From Dehalococcoidia bacterium (lineage in GTDB: Bacteria; Chloroflexota; Dehalococcoidia; Bin125): a stretch of DNA of 64,000 bases. The notes under the pieces are model-generated. The model worked only from the letters and a program-made list of their open reading frames with translations, made no database searches and was not told the origin of the DNA. The stretch covers positions 32,460-96,459 of the forward strand of contig JAJDYG010000009.1 of the NCBI GenBank assembly GCA_022822855.1. The letters run 5' to 3'. Position numbers and translations under genes: made by a program. Position 1 is the first letter of the stretch. Each line of letters begins with the position of its first letter. Of this stretch, positions 2,254-64,000 are shown piece by piece.

Positions 2254-4269
2254 ATGAGCGACCGAAACTATTGGCAGCGGCTGAGGCGGAAGCAGATGAG
2301 TCGCCGGACGCTCTTGCGGGCGTCCGGTCGAGCCGGGGTGGGCGCCGCCGGCCTGGCGCTGGTCGGTTGCGGCGGCGACGACGATGACGACAGTGCCTCG
2401 CAGGTTGCTCAGCCGCAGCAACAGCAACAGCAGGCGACGCAGCAGCAGGCCCAACCGCAACAACAGCAGCAGGCCATGCAGCAGCAGGCCCAGCAACAGC
2501 AGGCAGAGGACTCTGCCGATCAGCAGGCCCAACAAGCCGACCAGCAAGAGCAAACCGTTGCTGACGCCGACGATCAGCAGCAGCAACAAGTCGCGGCGTC
2601 CAATATCGTCCGCGGAGGAGACCTGCGGTTCTCAACGCCTGCTGCAACCCACGACTATTTCGACCCGCACAGAGCCGTCTTTGGGCCCACCCAATTCTGG
2701 ATGGGCTTCTACATGAACTATCTGATTCGCTGGCGCAACAAGGAACAGGGGATTCTTGAGGCGGATGTCGCTTCGTTGCCGGAGATTCCCGATGACGAGA
2801 CATACATCTTTCGCGTTGACCAGGGGGCTCGCTACTGGGATCAGTACCCGACGGAAGGCGGGCGCGAGGTCACTGCCGAGGACATCCGATTGAATTTCCT
2901 GCGGCAGATCGAGGCCGTCGACGCTAATGGCGCTGAAGACGGTACCTTCCTTGGGGCATCGGCCTTCCGCAAGACCGCCTCGATGGACGTGCCGGACGAG
3001 ACGACCTTTGTCGCCAAGACGGACGGTCCGGACGCGACTTGGATGGGCGTTCCCCTACGTCCGTTTAGCTGGATCACCAGCCCCGAAGCGATCACGGAGT
3101 TTGGCGACCGCTGGCGCGACGAGCCGTCCAATGTCGAACTGTCGTCGGGAACCGGAATGTTCATCCCCCAGAACTTCGATCCGGACATCGGGATCGATAT
3201 GGTTCGCAACGACAACTACTGGAAGATGGGCGCCGACGGGCAGCCGCTGCCTTACAACGACACTGTCACGCTCTCGAACCTGACTGATCCCACCGCCGTT
3301 GAGGCTGCATACCGCGGACGTGAGATCTTCGTGGGCGGGTTCCCGCTCTCCTCCGTCCAGGCTGAGAGCATTCTTGGCGACTTCCCCGACCACGGCCAGG
3401 GACAGATCGCGTTCGGATTCACGATCATCACCGGCGGCGCGAACTTCAACGCCGATTATCCCGGAGAAGATGGTCTCGGTAATCCCTGGATCGATCGCCG
3501 CTTCACTCAGGCCATGCACGTCGCGGTCGATCGCTACCTGATGATTGACACCGTCTATCTCGGATCAGGAAAGCCCTCCGGGATGGGCGAGACGCCTTGG
3601 TACAACGCCTTCTGGGCGATTCCCGAGGACGAGCTCCTGCAGACGCCGGGCTTCCGCCCGGATCGCGAGGCTGACATCGCAGAGGCCCGGGCACTGTTCG
3701 ATGCGACCGGCTACGACCGGAGCCGCGGACTGACGCTGATTGCGCCTGACATCTGGGAAGGCACCTACCCGGGCATTCTTGAGACTGAGGTTGGCATGTA
3801 TCGCGAGGCCCTCGACCTCGAGGTCAGCTTCGACGTTCAGCCGTACACGGTCATCCTCCAGCGTTGGATCGAAGGCACGTATCCCGGTCAGGGTCCGCAA
3901 TGGACGAACCCGCCCTCCGACCTCGATCCGACAACGTCCTACAACAACAACTACATCCCGGGCGGCAGCACCAACAACCTCGCGTACGATCACCCGCGCA
4001 TGACGGAGATCGCTGAGACCATGACGGTCACCCTGGACCTGGAACAGCGCCAGCAGTTGGCCCACGAGGCTCAGCGGATCCTGCTTGGGACCCATCCTGA
4101 CTATGGGCTCGATGGTGTTGCCAACAGCCCGGGTGTGATGAACGGTATCTCGCCGGCAGTCTGGTGGCCGTTCGTCCATCGCAACGACGACACGCTCCAG
4201 TTTGCCCATGCCAGTCACCGCTACGACGACACCTGGGTCGACACTACTCACCCGGACTACCCGGCTTAG
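2254..4269 (+). CDS. ABC transporter substrate-binding protein, family 5 (paralog 2)
   Basis: Same N-terminal pattern (NYWQRLRRKQMSRRTLLRASGRAGVGAAGLALVGCGGDDDDD) and Q-rich linker. Conserved blocks shared with 63-2099 include FSTPAATHDYFDPHRAVFGPTQFWMGFYMNYLIRW and WTNPPSDLDPT. Confidence 0.85.
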   Translation: MSDRNYWQRLRRKQMSRRTLLRASGRAGVGAAGLALVGCGGDDDDDSASQVAQPQQQQQQATQQQAQPQQQQQAMQQQAQQQQAEDSADQQAQQADQQEQTVADADDQQQQQVAASNIVRGGDLRFSTPAATHDYFDPHRAVFGPTQFWMGFYMNYLIRWRNKEQGILEADVASLPEIPDDETYIFRVDQGARYWDQYPTEGGREVTAEDIRLNFLRQIEAVDANGAEDGTFLGASAFRKTASMDVPDETTFVAKTDGPDATWMGVPLRPFSWITSPEAITEFGDRWRDEPSNVELSSGTGMFIPQNFDPDIGIDMVRNDNYWKMGADGQPLPYNDTVTLSNLTDPTAVEAAYRGREIFVGGFPLSSVQAESILGDFPDHGQGQIAFGFTIITGGANFNADYPGEDGLGNPWIDRRFTQAMHVAVDRYLMIDTVYLGSGKPSGMGETPWYNAFWAIPEDELLQTPGFRPDREADIAEARALFDATGYDRSRGLTLIAPDIWEGTYPGILETEVGMYREALDLEVSFDVQPYTVILQRWIEGTYPGQGPQWTNPPSDLDPTTSYNNNYIPGGSTNNLAYDHPRMTEIAETMTVTLDLEQRQQLAHEAQRILLGTHPDYGLDGVANSPGVMNGISPAVWWPFVHRNDDTLQFAHASHRYDDTWVDTTHPDYPA

Positions 4270-4324: not shown

Positions 4325-5950
4325 ATGCAGCGATATCTCATCCAACGCCTAATCCTCGTGATTCCGACGCTTTGGTTGGTGATCTCGCTGCTCTTCTTGG
4401 CTCTGCGGGCACTGCCGGGAGACTTCGTCACCCGTAAGCTCTCCAACCTTGAGAACCAGGGCGCTGAGCAGCGCGAGTCGGAAATCGTCGGCTTCATAGA
4501 AGTCGAGGACACGACACACCGGGTGATCTCGGGCGACACCCTGGAGGACATCGCAACGGAGAACGCCACGACCGTCTCCGCGTTGCTCGCTCAGAACCCG
4601 GATCTCGACACATCGGGCGAGCTCAGGCCCGGCACCCGGATCACCGTCATTCCTGGCCAGTTGCTGTCGCAGATCGCCATCGGAGAGAAAATTTCACTGC
4701 CTGAAGAAGTGGATACCGGCGTGCAGTTGCTGCTCGACCGCAACCCGGACGTTGACTTTCCTCAGTATCAGGGCCAGCCTTACGCGGAAGCAGGGACGAT
4801 TCTGATCCTGCGGAACACTCTGACGCTCGATGAACTGGCGCACGTCAACCGGATCGATGCCAGCGACATCCTCGCGGTCAATCCCACCGGCAGCGCTAGC
4901 AATCCCGACGGGAACTTATCGGCCGACACGCAATTGATCCCAACAGGACTTGTGGTTGCCGAAGAGGGCGACACGCTTGAAGGGCTCGCCGCGGCATTCG
5001 GTCGCGACCTCGAAGCGATGACCGCGGCTAACCGTGGAGTAGACCCGGCCGAACCCTTAGAAGCGGGGACAGACATTCTCATCCCCTCGGACCGGATCGT
5101 GACTCCGACTACCAAAATCACCGAGGCAAACATTCGGCATCGACTGGGCATCGACAAGCCGCTAGGCACTCAGTACATCGATTTCCTCTGGGAGACTGTG
5201 CGGTTGAAGTTCCGGCCGTCCTTCCAGACCCAGGAAGGGTCGCTGGACATCTTCCTGCGCGCCTTGCCGCGGACGTTGCACCTGAATGTCTACGCGTTGA
5301 TCGTGGCCCTGGTGATCGCCCTACCGGTCGGCATTCTGTCCGCGATGCGGCAGGACCGGCCTCTGGACTATGCCTTGCGCGGGTTCGCCATCCTCGCGCT
5401 GGCCGCGCCTTCCTTCTGGATCGCAACGATGATGATCTTTGTCGTCACACCGGGAGGCATTTCAGAAGCCGGGATCTGGTCGATTCCGCTGACATCGGAA
5501 GAGGCGAGATCGGTCTTCTCCTCCTTCACCGGAGCTCTGGCCCTGTACTCGATTCCTGCCGTCGCTGGCGGCATCGCAGCGGGAGCCGGCTTGATGCGGA
5601 TCACCCGGTCCGAACTGCTTGAGGTGCTGCGACAGGACTACGTCCGTACCGCATGGTCCAAGGGGCTCCGCGAACGAACAGTGATTCGCCGTCACGCGAT
5701 GCGCAACGCCCTGGTCAACGTGATGAGCGTCCTCGGCCTGCAGATTGCAGCGCTGGTCGGCGGCAACATCATCCTCGAGCTGCTGTTCAACATCCCAGGC
5801 ATCGGACTGTTGCTCATTCAGCGCATCAATCAGGCCGACCTGCCGGTCGTGCAGACGATGGTGTTCTTCTTCGCCCTGTTCATCATCATCGTGAACATCA
5901 TCATCGACATCTCGTACGCGGTGATTGACCCGCGTATTCGATACACCTAA
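4325..5950 (+). CDS. ABC transporter permease, DppB/OppB-like, with ~230-aa periplasmic insertion containing LysM-like repeats
   Basis: N-terminal TM helix plus the PGD motif typical of DppB. The conserved LGIDKPLGTQYIDFLW segment and C-terminal TM core (ALRNALVNV..IDISYAVIDPRIRY) are present. Between TM1 and the LGIDKP block lie three LysM-like units, e.g. HRVISGDTLEDIATENATTVSALLAQNPDLDTSGELRPGTRITVIPG. Confidence 0.85.
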   Translation: MQRYLIQRLILVIPTLWLVISLLFLALRALPGDFVTRKLSNLENQGAEQRESEIVGFIEVEDTTHRVISGDTLEDIATENATTVSALLAQNPDLDTSGELRPGTRITVIPGQLLSQIAIGEKISLPEEVDTGVQLLLDRNPDVDFPQYQGQPYAEAGTILILRNTLTLDELAHVNRIDASDILAVNPTGSASNPDGNLSADTQLIPTGLVVAEEGDTLEGLAAAFGRDLEAMTAANRGVDPAEPLEAGTDILIPSDRIVTPTTKITEANIRHRLGIDKPLGTQYIDFLWETVRLKFRPSFQTQEGSLDIFLRALPRTLHLNVYALIVALVIALPVGILSAMRQDRPLDYALRGFAILALAAPSFWIATMMIFVVTPGGISEAGIWSIPLTSEEARSVFSSFTGALALYSIPAVAGGIAAGAGLMRITRSELLEVLRQDYVRTAWSKGLRERTVIRRHAMRNALVNVMSVLGLQIAALVGGNIILELLFNIPGIGLLLIQRINQADLPVVQTMVFFFALFIIIVNIIIDISYAVIDPRIRYT

Positions 5951-17453: not shown

Positions 17454-20132
17454 GTGCAGGATTTCTCCATGACCAACGACGAACATCTCCTTGACGGCGT
17501 GCGCGTGATCGAAGTCGGGGACGAGGTCTCCGCTTACGCCGGCAAGCTGTTTGCTGGCCTCGGCGCAGAAGTGATCAAGGTTGAGCCCCCCGATGGATGC
17601 TCTACTCGGAGCATCGGACCGTTTTACCAGGATGACCCAGGTCTCGAGCGGTCGCTGTTCTGGTGGCACTACAGCATCGGCAAACGATCGTTGACGCTCA
17701 ATCTGAACGCCGATGATGGTCGCTCGACGTTGCTGAACCTGCTTGGCACGGCTGACCTGTTCCTCGACGCTCGACCGAAGTCCGACCTTGAGCAACAGGG
17801 ACCCGACGAGGAGGCCGTCCGCGAGGCGAACCCGGACATCGTGATTGCCCGGATGTCTCCGTTTGGCGATTCGGGGCCGTGGGCTGACTATCGGGGTTCG
17901 GATCTGGTCCACCTGGCGCTGGGTGGGCCGATGATGAACTGCGGCTATGACCCTCGGCCCGACGGCACGTACGACACTCCCCCTATCGCGCCGCAGATGT
18001 GGCAGGCGTACCACATCGCCGGGGAGCTGACCGTGATGAATGCGATTGGGGCGCTGATTGATCGGGGGCGTTCCGGCCGAGCGCAGACATTGCACACCGC
18101 GGTGCATGACGCGGTTGCCAAGAACACCGAGCTTGATCTGATGAGTTGGGTCTATCGGCGGGCGCGGTTCTTCCGGCAGACCTGCCGCCATGCGGCTGAG
18201 GTGGTCTCGCCGTTGCCGATGATTGGTCCGACCAAGGATGGGCGCTGGGTAATGGCGCTGCCGCGCGGACGGTCTCAGTCGTTGATCGACTTCCTGGACA
18301 GCTACGACATGGCGGCCGATTTGAAGGACAAAGCGCCGGAGTCGGGCGGCGCGAACACGCGCTCCAGAGGCGAGACCGCCGCCCACCTGCAGGAGGTGTC
18401 GCAGCGGTTGATCCGCAAGTTCCGGTTCGAAGACGTGCCCTGGCGCGAAGCGCAGGACCTGGGTCACCTCTGGGCGCCGTTGCGCAAACCGCATGAGAAC
18501 GCGCTCGATCCTCACTGGTGGGAGCGGGGGAGCTTCGCCAGGGTGGCGCATCCAGAACACGAGGTTGATGGCAAACCGGCAGAGTTCATCTACACGTCGA
18601 GCAAGTGGGTTTCGTCGGAGACGTCGTGGCAGGTCGGGCCGCGCGCCCCGCTGCTCGGAGAGCACAACGAGGAGATCCTCGGCGAGCTGGACGCCGGCTC
18701 CTTGCGTGTGGGGCAGGCTTCTGGCATCTCTCTCCGCGGAGCGGGCGGAGAACAGAACGGGAATGGCCGAGCCGATATCCCGGAAGGGGAGTGCTCGGTG
18801 TCCAGGTGGGGGACGCCGTTTCCGCTCGAGGGGGTTCGCATTCTCGACTTCACCTGGTGGCTCGCCTCGGGCGGCGCGCCGCGATTCCTGTCGGCGCTGG
18901 GCGCGGAGGACATCAAGGTCGAGTGGCATCAGAACATGGACCTGCGGGTCGGCATGGCTCAGTTTCCGCAAGGCGGCAAGGGAGCTCGTGAAGTCCTGGG
19001 GATCAACGATGGACCGTTGCCGCCCGACAACTCGACGATCAACCGCTCAGGGCAGTTCAACGACTTCCACGCAGGACATCGCGGACTCTCACTCAATCTG
19101 CGCGACCCCCGCGGGCTGGAGATTGCCAAGCAACTGGTGTCAATTTCGGACATCGTCGCCGAGGGCTTTTCGCCCGGCGTGATGGAGCGCTGGGGCCTGG
19201 GCTATGAGGTGATGAAGGAGATCAAGCCGGACATCATCTACCTGTCGCAATCGGGGATGGGCCAGGTCGGCGTCTACGGGCGATACCGCACCGTCGGTCC
19301 GATCGCCGCGTCCTTCGGCGCGATCTCCGAGTTATCGGGCCTGCCGGAGCCATATGCTCCGGCCGGTTGGGGGTACAGCTACCTCGACTGGTTCGGCGCG
19401 TACAACCTCGCCAACGCGATGATGGCGGCACTGTACTACCGCGACCGGACCGGCAAGGGTCAGTGGATCGACTCCTCACAGGTTGACGCGGGCATCTATC
19501 TGAACGGCACGTCGGTCCTCGAGTGGTCGGCCAACGGGACGATCTGGCAGCGCTACGGCAACCGCTCGCCGTACAAGCCGGCCGCCCCGCATGGCGCGTT
19601 CCGATGCCGCGACGACATCGAGTCCAGCGACCGCTGGGTCGCGTTCGGCTGCTTCGACGAGTCGGACTGGCAGTCGCTGCGGCGGGTGATGGGCGACGCG
19701 GAGTGGGCGGCATCGGACCGCTTCGCCACGTTGGCGGATCGGCTGGCTAACCAGGACGAATTGGACGAGCGGATTTCGGAGTGGACGCGTCAACATGACC
19801 GCTGGGACTTGATGACGAGACTGCAGGAGGCCGGAGTCGCCGCCGGCGTTTGCCAGGACGCCCAGGACCGGTTCGAGGGCGACCCGCAGCTCGCCCACCT
19901 CAACTGGCTGACCGAGGTCGAACATTCCGAGATGGGTCCCTGGCCGACCAAGGAGGTGCCGGTCAAGTGGAGCGAGACTCCGCCGTTCATGGGCGGGCCG
20001 ATCGACCGGGGCGCGCCGCGTTACGGCGAGGACAACCACTATGTGCTCGGCGAGCTGCTCGGCCTGAGCTCGTCGGAGATCTCCCGGCTGGCGGATGACG
20101 GGGTGATCGCCGAGGGTCTCGCGAAGGTCTGA
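17454..20132 (+). CDS. Family III CoA-transferase (CaiB/BaiF-like), tandem-duplicated fused protein
   Basis: Two CoA-transferase III-like halves. The N-terminal half has VRVIEVGDEVSAYAGKLFAGLGAEVIKVEPP. The second half (from ~aa 460) has VRILDFTWWLASGGAPRFLSALGAEDIKVEW. Confidence 0.8.
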   Translation: MQDFSMTNDEHLLDGVRVIEVGDEVSAYAGKLFAGLGAEVIKVEPPDGCSTRSIGPFYQDDPGLERSLFWWHYSIGKRSLTLNLNADDGRSTLLNLLGTADLFLDARPKSDLEQQGPDEEAVREANPDIVIARMSPFGDSGPWADYRGSDLVHLALGGPMMNCGYDPRPDGTYDTPPIAPQMWQAYHIAGELTVMNAIGALIDRGRSGRAQTLHTAVHDAVAKNTELDLMSWVYRRARFFRQTCRHAAEVVSPLPMIGPTKDGRWVMALPRGRSQSLIDFLDSYDMAADLKDKAPESGGANTRSRGETAAHLQEVSQRLIRKFRFEDVPWREAQDLGHLWAPLRKPHENALDPHWWERGSFARVAHPEHEVDGKPAEFIYTSSKWVSSETSWQVGPRAPLLGEHNEEILGELDAGSLRVGQASGISLRGAGGEQNGNGRADIPEGECSVSRWGTPFPLEGVRILDFTWWLASGGAPRFLSALGAEDIKVEWHQNMDLRVGMAQFPQGGKGAREVLGINDGPLPPDNSTINRSGQFNDFHAGHRGLSLNLRDPRGLEIAKQLVSISDIVAEGFSPGVMERWGLGYEVMKEIKPDIIYLSQSGMGQVGVYGRYRTVGPIAASFGAISELSGLPEPYAPAGWGYSYLDWFGAYNLANAMMAALYYRDRTGKGQWIDSSQVDAGIYLNGTSVLEWSANGTIWQRYGNRSPYKPAAPHGAFRCRDDIESSDRWVAFGCFDESDWQSLRRVMGDAEWAASDRFATLADRLANQDELDERISEWTRQHDRWDLMTRLQEAGVAAGVCQDAQDRFEGDPQLAHLNWLTEVEHSEMGPWPTKEVPVKWSETPPFMGGPIDRGAPRYGEDNHYVLGELLGLSSSEISRLADDGVIAEGLAKV

Positions 20133-59111: not shown

Positions 59112-59699
59112 ATGGCTTCCCGCAATACCATCGTCGCCCACGTCGAAGACCGCCCGGGCGTTCTGGCGCGCGTCGCGTCGTTGTTCCGCCGCCGAGGTTT
59201 CAATATCGAGTCGCTCACCGTCGGTCACTGCGAAGAGCCCGGCCTCAGCCGCATGACCATCGTCGTCGACGGCGACGATCACCAGGTCGACCAGGTCTGC
59301 CGCCAACTGTTCAAACTGATCGACGTCGTCTCCGTTCAGGACATCACCTACGTCCCGATGGTTGACCGCGAACTCGCGCTGATCAAAGTCTCGGCCAGCA
59401 ATTTCAACCGCCGCGAGGTCCTCGACGTGGTCGAGGTGTTCCGCGCCGATGTCGTCGACGTCCATTCGGATGCGCTGATCGTCCAGGTGCTCGGCGACGA
59501 GGGCAAGGTCGACGCCGCTCTCAAGATGTTCGAGCAGTTCGGCATCCTCGAGATGGTCCGCACCGGTCGCGTCGCCATGCTGCGCGGCACCGAGACCACC
59601 AAGCCGCCAGCCATCTCCGACTCCCAGCAGGCCGCCGCCGCCATCCGAGCCATGCTCGGCCGCCGACCCGAAGGCGCCCTCCCCTTCGCCAGCGACTAA
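59112..59699 (+). CDS. ilvN: Acetolactate synthase, small (regulatory) subunit
   Basis: ACT domain N-terminus (TIVAHVEDRPGVLARVASLFRRRGFNIESLTVG). Lies immediately downstream of ilvB. Confidence 0.85.
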   Translation: MASRNTIVAHVEDRPGVLARVASLFRRRGFNIESLTVGHCEEPGLSRMTIVVDGDDHQVDQVCRQLFKLIDVVSVQDITYVPMVDRELALIKVSASNFNRREVLDVVEVFRADVVDVHSDALIVQVLGDEGKVDAALKMFEQFGILEMVRTGRVAMLRGTETTKPPAISDSQQAAAAIRAMLGRRPEGALPFASD

Positions 59700-59715
59700 C
59701 CGCCGAACAAATCCC

Positions 59716-59790
59716 CACTCCCTTTCTCCCCCCGCGAAGCGGGGGGAGATGCCGAAGGCAGAGGGGGGTCCCCGCTTGCCCTACCCTCCT
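59716..59790. repeat. GC-rich palindromic hairpin element; inverted copy of the element at 21931-22075
   Basis: tctccccccgcgaagcggggggaga hairpin. The reverse complement of 59741-59773 shares the 28-nt core cccccctctgccttcggcatctcccccc with 21934-21961. Confidence 0.75.
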
Positions 59791-60229
59791 CCCGAGTCAC
59801 TTCTCCCTCCGCGGGGCTGCGCGCAAATCGCCTCAGCACACCATCGCGCCCACGTAGGGGGCGACCCTCGTGGTCGCCCTGTCCGCTGAAAACGAAGGAC
59901 GAGGCCAACCCTCCAATGCCCCGCACTTACCCTCCGATGCCCCGTGCTTGCCTGCCCCTGGCTTGAACAGGGGACACGGGGCCCAGACCTCAGCCGTTGC
60001 AATCGCGAAAGCCTCGGCCTCACTTCGGCCTCAGCCACGAAAGTCCCATCTGCAAGCCAAACAACGCTCCACCTCTAAGAGAACCTATGTACGGTTAGAA
60101 TCAGCCAGCACCAAATCCAACCACCTGAAGGGGAGGCACTATGCCCATGCCGACGCAACATCAGCCTCGCGGTTTCCCCCTGCCCACCAACCGTTCTCCT
60201 CACACAGATCCGAACAAGCCCGAACACGC

Positions 60230-60440
60230 GGAACACTCCCCTCTGCCCCGTTCAGCTCACCCTGTCGCTGTCCAGCAAACCTTGGACCAACCGGAACATG
60301 GCTGAACACAGCTGAACCAGGCTGAACGATCCTGACCACCCTGAACGCACGATCCTCAGCAATACACTGGAGATCGTCCCATTGATCCGCCAAACACAGA
60401 TTTCACCTGAACACCTGAACACCTGAACCGCGAACAACTG
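60230..60440 (+). repeat. Cluster of CTGAAC(A/G) hexamer repeats in G-depleted ilvN-ilvC spacer
   Basis: About 10 copies, e.g. ggctgaacacagctgaaccaggctgaacgatcctgaccaccctgaacgc and cacctgaacacctgaacacctgaacc. Confidence 0.6.
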
Positions 60441-60512
60441 CCCAATACCCAATCCACGCCTACACTCAGGCGAGAACAACGATCACCCAACCCCAACCCG
60501 CAGGAGACCCGT

Positions 60513-61517
60513 ATGCCCGCCCAGATGTACTACGACGCCGACGCCGACCTTGATCTGATCAAGGACAAGAAAATCGCCGTGATCGGCTTCGGCTCCCAGG
60601 GTCACGCGCACGCGCTCAACCTTCGCGACTCAGGCTGCGACGTCATCGTCGGCCTCTATCCCGGCTCGCGAAGCTGGAACAAGGTCCAGGACTCCGGACT
60701 CCAGGTCGACACCGTCGCCGACGCCGCAGCCGCCGCCGACATCGTCATGGTCCTCACCCCCGACCACGTCCAGAAGGCGATCTACGACCAGCACATCGCC
60801 CCCTCGATGACCGAGGGCAAGACCCTGATGTTCGCTCACGGCTTCGCCATCCACTACAACCAGGTCGCTCCGCCGCCCGAGGTCGATGTCACGATGATCG
60901 CCCCGAAGGGCCCCGGTCACCTCGTCCGCCGAGTCTTCGAAGAAGGCGGCGGCGTCCCGGCGCTGCTCGCCATCTACCAGGACGCTTCCGAGACCGCCAG
61001 GGAGGTCGCCCTCGCCTACGCCAAGGGCATCGGAGGCACCCGCGCCGGCGTCCTCGAAACCACCTTCCTCGAGGAAACCGAAACCGACCTCTTCGGCGAG
61101 CAGTCCGTCCTCTGCGGCGGCGTCACCGCCCTGATGCAGGCCGGATTCGAGACCCTCGTTGAGGCCGGTTACCAGCCCGAGTCCGCTTACTTCGAGACGA
61201 TCCACGAGGTCAAGCTGATCGTCGACCTGATCTACGAGGGCGGCTTCGCCAACATGCGCTACTCGGTCTCCGACACCGCCGAGTATGGCGACCTGACCCG
61301 GGGCCCGCGCATCGTCGACGAGTCCGTCAAGGCCAGGATGAAGCAGATCCTCGACGACATCCAGGACGGCACCTTCGCCCGAGAGTGGATCATGGAAAAC
61401 CAGACCGGCCGCCCTGGCTTCGATAAGCTCCGAGCCCGCGCCGCCAGCCACCCCAGCGAAGAGGTCGGAGCCGAGCTCCGAGGCATGATGTCCTGGCTCA
61501 ACGAAGAAGCCGACTAA
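60513..61517 (+). CDS. ilvC: Ketol-acid reductoisomerase
   Basis: [19 protein letters not shown]ossmann motif and KARI C-terminal domain. Confidence 0.9.
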
Positions 61518-61529
61518 CCCGACTCGCGC

Positions 61530-62030
61530 TCAGCCGGAGCGTTCGTCCAGAGCAAGTTGATACGGCAGCGGATCGCCCAGGTCACCGTCGCGCCAGTGGG
61601 TGAGCGAGTGGGCGAGGTCTGACAGCTCCGACGCCGATTGACCCTCGGTCGCCCGCAGGATCTGCTCCGTCGTCGCGATCTCGGCGCCGTTGAAGCCGAA
61701 CAGGTCGGCACTGGTCAGCGCCATCGGACGGTACTGCGTGTACCCGCCCAGGTCCGACGGTTGGATCACGATGCTGCCGTCATCGATCAGCGGGTCCAGG
61801 TACAGCTCGAACTTGACCAGCCACGGCCCGTGCTCGGCGACCACATAGTCCGCCCCGGTGATCGACTCCCCGTGCCGGCGATAGTGCAGAAAGTCGCTCA
61901 GGCAGAGCAACGTGTTCAGTTGACTCGTCCCGAACGAGCGCGCCGTGATCCGCCGCTCGCACAGATAGATGATCAACTCGCGCAGCTTGGGTTCTCCCAA
62001 CTCCGAGGTGAAGCGGGTGAGCGTGGTCAT
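61530..62030 (-). CDS. Panacea (DUF4065, SocA-like) domain protein - candidate antitoxin
   Basis: Pattern KLRELIIYLC...LCLSDFLHYRRHGESITGADYVVAEHGPW and the C-terminal SASELSDLAHSLTHW resemble the DUF4065/Panacea domain. Confidence 0.55.
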   Translation of the reverse strand: MTTLTRFTSELGEPKLRELIIYLCERRITARSFGTSQLNTLLCLSDFLHYRRHGESITGADYVVAEHGPWLVKFELYLDPLIDDGSIVIQPSDLGGYTQYRPMALTSADLFGFNGAEIATTEQILRATEGQSASELSDLAHSLTHWRDGDLGDPLPYQLALDERSG

Positions 62031-62042
62031 ACGATCTCCAGT

Positions 62043-62432
62043 TCAGCCGCTCGTCCGGGCGGGCTTGGCCGCCCTGGGTTTCGCATGGCGTAGCTCGTGC
62101 GGCACGCCGCGGGCTTCGAACAGGTCGACCCACTCCTGCTGAGTCCGGTTGCGCAAGGCCTCAGTGATCACCGTCGATAGCTCCGAGGCGTGCTGAAGTC
62201 GCAACTCCGCCGTCGCAAAGCGCGGGTCGTCCTCGATCTGAAGCTGAAACTCCGGCAGATACGCCTCGCCGTCGGCTGGATGGCGCTCGTGATGATCCCA
62301 CATGTGATCGGCGAGTGCAGCCTCACCCAGTGTGTCGCGCAGCCGTTGCCACTCCGCGTCGGTCGCAATCGTCAGATGGACCCAGCCGTCTGTCGCGCGG
62401 TACGCCCTCTGCAATGCGTTGAAGTCCGCCAT
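62043..62432 (-). CDS. Hypothetical protein, upstream partner of the Panacea-domain gene (candidate toxin)
   Basis: 129-aa ORF lying 13 nt upstream on the same strand. No recognisable domain. Confidence 0.4.
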   Translation of the reverse strand: MADFNALQRAYRATDGWVHLTIATDAEWQRLRDTLGEAALADHMWDHHERHPADGEAYLPEFQLQIEDDPRFATAELRLQHASELSTVITEALRNRTQQEWVDLFEARGVPHELRHAKPRAAKPARTSG

Positions 62433-62527
62433 CTTCCGGTTCCTCTTCTCTGCCTCAACTTGGGCGCAGGCTAGCGGTTAGCCTGCCCTCGAGTTCACTG
62501 GCAATGAGGACCGAAAAGGAGCAAGCC

Positions 62528-63556
62528 ATGCGTGCTGTGGCATCACGAAACGGTCAACTGCGAATCGCCGACGTTGACAAACCGGAACCGGTCGAGGGCG
62601 AGGCGCTGGTCAAAGTCCTGGCCTGCGGCATCTGCGGCTCGGACCTGCATTTCGTCAGGTTCGGCGAGGACATCGTCAAGGGCTCGATGGACTCCGGCAA
62701 CGCGCGCTTCGCGCCCGACCTCAGCCGCGACATCATCATGGGCCACGAGTTCTGCGTCGAGGTCGTCGAATACGGCCCCAACACCAACGGACCCGTCGGG
62801 ATCGGCGATCGGACGACCTCGGTGCCCACCCGCGGCGCCTACAGCAACGACTACCCCGGCGGCTACAGCGAGTACATGGTGCTCGACGCGTCGATGCTGC
62901 TTCCCGTCGAGGACAGCGTCGAGACCGAGCACGCCGCCACCACCGAGCCGATGGCCGTCGGCATGCACGCCGTCCGCGCCGGACAACTGAGCGGCGGTGA
63001 GCCGACGGTCGTCTACGGTTGCGGACCGGTCGGCCTGGCCACCATCGCCAGCCTGCGCAACGAGGGCTCGGGCATAATCATCGCCTCCGACTTCTCTCCC
63101 CGCCGCCGTGAACTCGCCGGAATCATGGGTGCCGACGTGGTCGTCGACCCGCGAGAAACGCCGCCGATCGCCGCCCTCGAACAGCGCGGCTACACAGCCG
63201 GCAACGAGGTCGTCATGTTCGACGCCATCGGTGTCCGGGGCACGATCGCGCTGCTGATGAAGGAAGCGCCTTCGCGAGGCGCCCGCCTGGTCATCGTCGG
63301 CGTCTGCATGCAGGAGGACACGATCGTCCCGATGGCCGGTATCGAGAAAGAAATCCAGATGAAGTTCGTCCTTGGTTACACGCCGGACGAGTACGCCGAG
63401 ACCCTCGACGCCATCACCTCAGGCGGCATTAGGCCAGGCCCAATCGTCACCGGCCGAGTCGGCCTCGACGGAGTCGCCGGAGCCTTCAACACCCTCGGAG
63501 ACCCCGAAGAGCACTGCAAGATCATGGTCACCCCGCACGAGGACAATGTGCTCTAG
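62528..63556 (+). CDS. Zinc-dependent alcohol dehydrogenase (MDR family)
   Basis: ACGICGSDLHFV and GHEFCVEV motifs, and a GCGPVG Rossmann segment. Confidence 0.8.
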   Translation: MRAVASRNGQLRIADVDKPEPVEGEALVKVLACGICGSDLHFVRFGEDIVKGSMDSGNARFAPDLSRDIIMGHEFCVEVVEYGPNTNGPVGIGDRTTSVPTRGAYSNDYPGGYSEYMVLDASMLLPVEDSVETEHAATTEPMAVGMHAVRAGQLSGGEPTVVYGCGPVGLATIASLRNEGSGIIIASDFSPRRRELAGIMGADVVVDPRETPPIAALEQRGYTAGNEVVMFDAIGVRGTIALLMKEAPSRGARLVIVGVCMQEDTIVPMAGIEKEIQMKFVLGYTPDEYAETLDAITSGGIRPGPIVTGRVGLDGVAGAFNTLGDPEEHCKIMVTPHEDNVL

Positions 63557-63635
63557 TTCAACTGCGAGAACGGAGGGCGTTCCGCGTAGAGAACAGATGT
63601 ATCAGGGACGCGATATATTGGTTGTAGGTCCAGCA

Positions 63636-64000
63636 GATGGAGGGGTTGACAGTGGGCGAAATCGTCGTCGAGATCCATCTGGAGAATGACCGTGATCGTG
63701 CGCTCTTCGAGGAAGGGCACCTCGAGGAACGCGAAGTCCGCAGCACCAGTGTTCGGGCCATCGTTGACACAGGCGCCGTGATGTTGGCGCTGCCTGAAGA
63801 TGTAGTCGATCGGCTCGGACTTCTTCAGGTGGACACGATCGCCGCGACATTGGCCGACGGCAGCCGCTGCGAGATGCCGGTCGTCGAACGGGTTTCCGTC
63901 CACATCGGCGACCGGAGGATGTTGACTGATGCTGTCGTCATACCCACTGGAGCGGATCCGCTCGTTGGTCAGCTGATCATGGAGCGGCTCGATCTGATCG
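63636..64000 (+). CDS. Retropepsin-like (clan AA) aspartic protease, partial (3' end beyond window)
   Basis: Frame not in the ORF track. It reads ...SVRAIVDTGAVMLALPEDVVDRLGL... with a D-T-G-A active-site motif. An ATG lies at 63636 and a GTG at 63652. Confidence 0.45.

Follow-up and report, generated by a model that had tools for sequence, protein, structure and literature searches.

A small protein of uncultured Dehalococcoidia is a lineage-specific product of exaptation, taken from the non-catalytic small domain of a CoA-transferase and carrying a histidine-rich insert gained since. It is 129 aa long and is encoded directly upstream of a stand-alone Panacea (DUF4065) protein of 166 aa; we call the two the fragment and Panacea-1. 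A preliminary description of the window (the whole stretch of DNA that was analyzed, 64,000 nt) had proposed that they form a toxin-antitoxin or defense pair, with the fragment as the candidate toxin. We give about an even chance to a different reading, namely that a cassette boundary separates the fragment from Panacea-1, which would make them neighbors rather than a cognate toxin-antitoxin pair.

Two adjacent genes between ADH and ilvC

Both open reading frames are present on the same strand with the sequences first quoted for them (Table 1), and both look like real, expressed genes. Their spacing, given earlier as 13 nt, is 12 nt. The pair does run convergently against ilvC, with the stop codons 12 nt apart, and the ADH gene diverges from the pair on the other side.

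Upstream of ilvC, a non-coding stretch of ~810 nt (window 59700-60512) separates it from ilvN, where relatives have only ~50-80 nt. This stretch is C-rich and contains CTGAAC-type repeats around 60290-60430; Rfam matched neither it nor anything else across window 59500-64000.

Table 1. Features of the locus. Positions are those of the window unless a related locus is named.
Feature	Position	Strand	Basis or remark
Panacea-1 gene, stand-alone Panacea (DUF4065), 166 aa	61530..62030	(-)	PF13274 match, AlphaFold model, Foldseek, dN/dS 0.10
Fragment gene, 129 aa, derived from family III CoA-transferase small domain	62043..62432	(-)	
Coding region of His-rich insert, residues 37-66 (...EAALADHMWDHHERHPADGEAYLPEFQLQI...), ~30 residues	62235..62324	(-)	PDB profile alignment
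Fragment/Panacea-1 junction, 12 nt, GGAG ribosome-binding site	62031..62042	(-)	TGA-ACTGGAGATCGT-ATG
ADH, Zn-dependent alcohol dehydrogenase family gene, conserved left flank	62504..63556	(+)	PF08240 + PF00107 matches
ilvC, ketol-acid reductoisomerase, conserved right border of variable Panacea slot	60513..61517	(+)	KARI_N + KARI_C annotation on orthologues
ADH/fragment divergent intergenic region, 71 nt	62433..62503		
Palindrome GCAGGCTA-n5-TAGCCTGC, operator-like	62466..62486		ADH/fragment common promoter region
Antisense small ORFs	L003 5360-5638, L026 ~4412-4675, L028 ~3635-3895	(-)	
Antisense small ORFs	L030 3642-3908, L032 3664-3942, L034 gap 3665-4000	(-)	
93-98 aa ORF	L002 5981-6262, L007 6596-6892, L008 ~6577, L016 ~1363		

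Panacea-1 is a stand-alone Panacea domain

The assignment of the 166-aa protein to Panacea/DUF4065 was borne out by the HMM search that might have overturned it. Panacea-1 matched Pfam PF13274 (SocA_Panacea) above the curated cut-off (32.7 bits vs. 25.7; E = 1.5e-7) over profile positions 3-112 of 113, and its relatives scored up to 47.6 bits. The published Panacea fold consists of helices around a central helix, with a small β-sheet that bears a conserved G-P-V-type motif (PMC8832971). The AlphaFold model of Panacea-1 (pLDDT 89.7) has this architecture: it contains a central helix (H35-53) and a small sheet with strands 62-65 and 68-71, on which sits the pair G68-P69, invariant across 42 Panacea homologues. 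Among the best Foldseek matches to the model was a phage protein annotated as SocA-like Panacea (E = 2.4e-4, TM 0.69); against the PDB, the matches were weak and winged-helix-like (E about 0.02). We found no HTH, PAD1 or zinc-binding extension on Panacea-1. Its only match in PHROGs was to a family of unknown function, and the fragment had none there; PADLOC matched neither protein. Panacea-1 is a genuine stand-alone Panacea domain, an identification that is ordinary in itself.

The fragment is a CoA-transferase small domain with a histidine-rich insert

The fragment had been described as acidic and His-rich, as it is (pI 5.55, 8 His), but also as lacking a recognizable fold. That second point gave way to a match with PF02515 (CoA_transf_3; E = 7.4e-14, 52.1 bits vs. 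a cut-off of 23.3), which covers two short stretches of the profile only, the better one at positions 262-308 of 366. In a family-profile alignment against the PDB, fragment residues 10-36 and 67-111 aligned to residues 253-279 and 284-328 of Rv3272 (394 aa), so that ~30 insert residues replace a four-residue linker. Because the alignment is confined to residues ~253-328 of Rv3272, the fragment corresponds to the small domain alone; without the large domain, it also lacks the catalytic and CoA-binding region of the family III enzymes. It does not have the two-domain CoA-transferase architecture (~360-420 aa, with catalytic and CoA-binding residues in the large domain), and NCBIfam enzyme models gave it 10.9-20.5 bits vs. 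cut-offs of 442-750. It has neither catalytic residues nor a membrane segment, and it matched no toxin family. The fragment shares the PF02515 sequence with the family III CoA-transferases (CaiB/BaiF/Frc; Rv3272, 5yit; Brucella CaiB/BaiF, 4ed9). Unlike them, it amounts to ~75 of their ~400 residues, stands alone as a protein of 120-130 aa, and has a ~30-residue His-rich insert where the enzymes have a linker of ~4 residues. On these comparisons, it is best classed as domain-derived rather than as an enzyme.

The insert (...ADHMWDHHERHPADGEAYLPEF...) is almost unchanged throughout the fragment family, with H43, W45, D46, H47, H48, E49, R50, H51, P52, D54 and Y58 nearly invariant. Its pN/pS of 0.04 is the lowest in the fragment gene and similar to that of ilvC, and it is missing from the best full-length relative, P0069. 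Fragment residues 25-50 were modeled as one long helix. H43, H47 and H51 follow one another at i, i+4 spacing on a single predicted helix, and the face that they form is probably a metal- or ligand-binding site. A further protein considered as a match to the insert, P0083, was rejected as unrelated and repetitive.

Among 1.84 billion representative proteins searched, the short form appeared in one 50%-identity cluster plus a few partial sequences; all other matches were ordinary CoA-transferases that aligned only to the two flanks of the insert. The fragment family is thus a narrow, lineage-specific invention. We found 33 short homologues of the fragment (62-96% identity); P0033 (189 aa), which looks like a chimeric call, was omitted from the later fragment alignment. 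The search of representative proteins also returned many double CoA-transferase forms of ~800 aa, and the window itself encodes an 892-aa protein with two tandem CoA-transferase III units (17454-20132, (+)). CaiB/BaiF CoA-transferases have been reported to be greatly expanded in SAR202 Chloroflexi.

Selection on the fragment and Panacea-1

An internal piece of PF02515 is what a dead gene might leave behind, and in some relatives full-length CoA-transferase genes lie nearby. The 129-aa ORF could thus be read as a remnant of a CoA-transferase that was truncated by insertion of Panacea or ADH. Against this, the ORF was intact in all loci, from ATG start to TGA stop, with the ribosome-binding site also conserved. 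Its dN/dS was 0.077, compared with 0.10 for Panacea-1 and 0.037 for ilvC; the values for the fragment and Panacea-1 indicate strong purifying selection on both. Diversity sat mostly at third codon positions, and the GC and GC3 of both genes equaled those of their neighbors. From the third-position diversity, the low dN/dS and the matching composition, we rejected the idea of a pseudogene; by the same evidence, the DNA is native rather than a recent acquisition. Full-length relatives also lack the strongly constrained insert. The selection analysis effectively refutes the remnant, to which we assign a negligible probability.

Two related ideas were dropped. The fragment is only ~18% identical to adjacent full-length paralogues, so it is not a recent remnant of them. 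Small ORFs downstream of Panacea in relatives, considered as the missing C-terminus of a CoA-transferase, proved to be an unrelated 93-aa ORF and a retropepsin-like protease.

Conservation of the locus

A genome scan with the Panacea alignment returned 20 species-level MAGs, all Dehalococcoidia or Chloroflexota and many apparently sponge-derived (judged by isolate names); a metagenome scan with the fragment alignment added one locus only. In every locus the order was ADH(-) / fragment(+) / Panacea(+) / ... / ilvC(-), and this fixed slot of Zn-ADH, fragment, Panacea and ilvC was found in about two dozen uncultured Dehalococcoidia genomes, with 88-97% amino-acid identity in ilvC among loci. ADH adjoined the fragment divergently in every locus of both clades. 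In main-clade relatives, the junction between the fragment and Panacea-1 was either 12-13 nt with GGAG or a 4-nt ATGA/GTGA overlap; in L034 and L038, the gap was 23-24 nt. Panacea-1 was always accompanied by the fragment (about 24 loci, including the deepest branch at 66% identity), and a Panacea gene of some type lay within ~400 nt of the fragment in all fragment loci.

This arrangement resembles that of PanAT loci, the Panacea/DUF4065 toxin-antitoxin systems (Kurata et al. 2022, PMC8832971; Ernits et al. 2023, PMC10440598). As in PanAT, a stand-alone Panacea with the conserved G-P strand motif has a small co-directional neighbor within 100 nt, in an arrangement conserved across species. Under the published in-silico criteria (PMC8832971), the pair qualifies as a Panacea toxin-antitoxin-like locus, with a gap of 12 nt (-4 to 24 nt in relatives), about 24 loci and borders set by divergent ADH and convergent ilvC. 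The pair would then be a type II toxin-antitoxin (or abortive-defense) pair of the PanAT kind, in which the fragment is a new toxin family and Panacea-1 neutralizes it by direct binding. Several further points agree with this proposal. Panacea-1 always follows the fragment, and a toxin-first gene order is found in known PanAT loci. All main-clade loci have a tight, operon-like junction; Panacea-1, though strongly constrained, lacks any alternative candidate partner within the window's cassette. For most toxins associated with Panacea, no domain is known (PMC8832971), and NetFlax indicates that stand-alone Panacea domains can neutralize toxins directly. We nevertheless consider a toxin-antitoxin pair unlikely. 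The fragment is acidic and shows none of the toxin features sought above. In the available portions of the Panacea paper (PMC8832971) and its supplement, the partners include no CoA-transferase-like toxin. NetFlax predictions were non-toxic in 10/26 tested. The tight spacing may also simply reflect a compact genome, since Panacea and ilvC are likewise only 3-12 nt apart.

The co-occurrence itself also carries less weight than the number of loci suggests. The preliminary description had looked to conservation of the pair in other genomes; the 129-aa ORF does adjoin Panacea in every related locus examined, but within one lineage and one syntenic slot. Because all co-occurrences fall in this single, vertically inherited slot, they represent one evolutionary observation and not independent co-occurrence. 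The loci were, moreover, collected by searching with the fragment and Panacea-1 themselves, and genomes without both are invisible to such a search. In a mirror-tree comparison, the partial distance correlation between the fragment and Panacea-1 (r = 0.28) fell between those of unrelated neighboring pairs (0.20 and 0.43).

The same junction can be read without a toxin. Panacea-1 might bind the fragment as a regulator, a sensor or a SocA-like proteolytic adaptor, controlling its level or activity, with the two co-expressed for stoichiometry. The translationally coupled junction, kept in two forms, and the housekeeping-like constraint on both genes would suit such a partnership. There is a precedent in Caulobacter crescentus: the Panacea family was founded on SocA, which delivers its partner, the toxin SocB, to ClpXP as an adaptor. 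There, as here, a Panacea-family protein is encoded beside a small protein, so that a role as adaptor or regulator is conceivable; in our locus, however, the gene order is reversed and the partner is the CoA-transferase small-domain derivative. A sensory role for Panacea has been proposed by NetFlax. We regard a non-toxic partnership as doubtful, on the same evidence of separate inheritance that speaks against the toxin-antitoxin pair (see below).

A putative operator between ADH and the fragment

The palindrome in the ADH/fragment spacer (Table 1) occurs once in the 64-kb window, vs. 0.03 copies expected by chance, and once in the same place in 21 related loci. It is the sole conserved block of an otherwise variable spacer. 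Its arms extend to 62457-62473 and 62479-62495, and in L007 an arm change is compensated. A simple scan of the intergenic region found no sigma-70-like promoter and no intrinsic terminator. We consider the palindrome a putative, operator-like site; its place in the ADH/fragment promoter region would tie expression of the fragment to the ADH side.

Exchange of Panacea cassettes beside the fragment

More distant Panacea relatives, at 30-49% identity, were recovered by a profile search. Sister-clade loci (L003, L026, L028, L030 and L031) contain the fragment, an opposite-strand small ORF and a second Panacea type, Panacea-2, which is 33-49% identical to Panacea-1; they contain no Panacea-1. Their fragment is intact (dN/dS about 0.08-0.25), and its HQWDHHERHPAD block is invariant. 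A close relative of the window, L034, has both Panacea types in tandem, in the order fragment, Panacea-1, antisense ORF and Panacea-2; the two are therefore paralogues and not diverged orthologues. Panacea-2 is fast-evolving (pN/pS 0.36-0.56) and Panacea-1 slow, a difference that would favor a non-toxic partnership of Panacea-1 with the fragment.

At the nucleotide level, ADH, the fragment and ilvC are 95-100% identical between L003 and L030, and the stretch from the fragment stop to the ilvC stop is only 25-74% identical. In L015, ADH and the fragment are 91-97% identical, the junction 70% and Panacea-1 83-87%. In L005, L007, L008 and L023, ADH is distant (67-83% identity) and Panacea-1 nearest of all (87-92%). 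In the window's clade, a recombination breakpoint thus lies at the fragment/Panacea-1 junction, and ADH and the fragment stay linked in both comparisons. From the sister clade without Panacea-1 and the breakpoints between the genes, it follows that the fragment is inherited with its ADH flank and Panacea with a variable cassette. Inheritance as one unit, which is typical of PanAT although not strictly defining, was not seen for the fragment and Panacea-1. These observations weigh against a toxin-antitoxin pair: the fragment remains under selection without Panacea-1, beside Panacea-2 alleles that are swapped between near-identical genomes; a breakpoint separates the two genes; and the locus, neither patchy nor mobile, is a fixed one that passes vertically and has native composition.

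The cassette also varies in size. The distance from Panacea-1 to ilvC ranges from 3 to 3553 nt among relatives, and the cargo found there ranges from a 93-aa ORF and a retropepsin-like protease to an ABC transporter and additional CoA-transferases. In some relatives, though not in the window, an ORF of 93-98 aa lies directly downstream of Panacea-1 (Table 1), with a hydrophobic N-terminus and a Gly/His/Asp-rich C-terminus; it is possibly an alternative Panacea-1 partner that was lost in the window. A retropepsin-like aspartyl protease gene (PF13975/PF13650) begins at 63652 in the window and runs off its end at 64000. Its homologues behave as if mobile: in some relatives they lie between Panacea-1 and ilvC, in others next to ADH.

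The antisense small ORFs (~76-92 aa) stand head-to-head with Panacea-2, and both are swapped together between near-identical genomes. The sister-clade ORF has no relative in Pfam, NCBIfam or PDB profile searches, and an impression by eye that it is RelE/ParE-like, which these searches did not support, was dropped. Panacea-2 may have its true partner in this ORF family.

In outgroups, Panacea genes are found within mobile or defense islands; the small partners there are different ones, and a CoA-transferase fragment is missing. In L035 (4001-4873) and L037 (3458-4808), a small unannotated ORF lies 21-76 nt downstream of Panacea, and the islands hold integrase, methyltransferase, Phd/PIN, HigA/Gp49 and NACHT genes, a typical Panacea toxin-antitoxin or defense context. 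These outgroup relatives of Panacea-1 thus resemble PanAT in their surroundings. The locus studied here differs from PanAT in that it is fixed, vertically inherited and native in composition. Its small neighbor, moreover, persists without Panacea-1, outside the recombining cassette, and as a CoA-transferase small-domain derivative has no counterpart among partner families in the available portion of the published descriptions.

Discussion

The reading to which we give an even chance, neighbors across a cassette boundary, would account for the locus as follows. The fragment and the divergent Zn-ADH gene are passed on together as a single unit, and they share a promoter region with the conserved, operator-like palindrome. 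Panacea-1 fills a variable cassette slot bounded precisely by the stop codons of the fragment and ilvC. Among relatives, this slot holds Panacea-1 alone, Panacea-1 with cargo, or an antisense small ORF with the fast-evolving Panacea-2, and recombination would exchange its content independently of the fragment. In the window, the cassette contains Panacea-1 alone, a solo Panacea that would be read through from the fragment's transcript. We infer that the fragment is functionally tied to the ADH/CoA-metabolism side and that it has no toxin-antitoxin relationship with Panacea-1.

A broader form of the opposing view would make the fragment a new family of effectors or toxins under Panacea control, which became fixed in a lineage of symbionts and which either Panacea paralogue can hold in check. 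Such a protein might bind metal or might poison the assembly of interlocked CoA-transferase dimers, of which these bacteria have many. We find this improbable. If the toxin reading were true, a toxin derived from an enzyme fragment would join the Panacea network, and a toxin-antitoxin module would be behaving as a core gene pair.

The locus also offers a caution, in that a conserved adjacency to Panacea, toxin-antitoxin-like by published criteria, is here most likely a matter of synteny where a variable cassette begins. Overall, its significance is modest, that of a lineage-restricted curiosity. What it adds is a small, strongly constrained protein family that arose from an exapted CoA-transferase small domain and a new His-rich insert, and a fixed chromosomal slot beside ilvC in which Panacea cassettes are swapped between close relatives.
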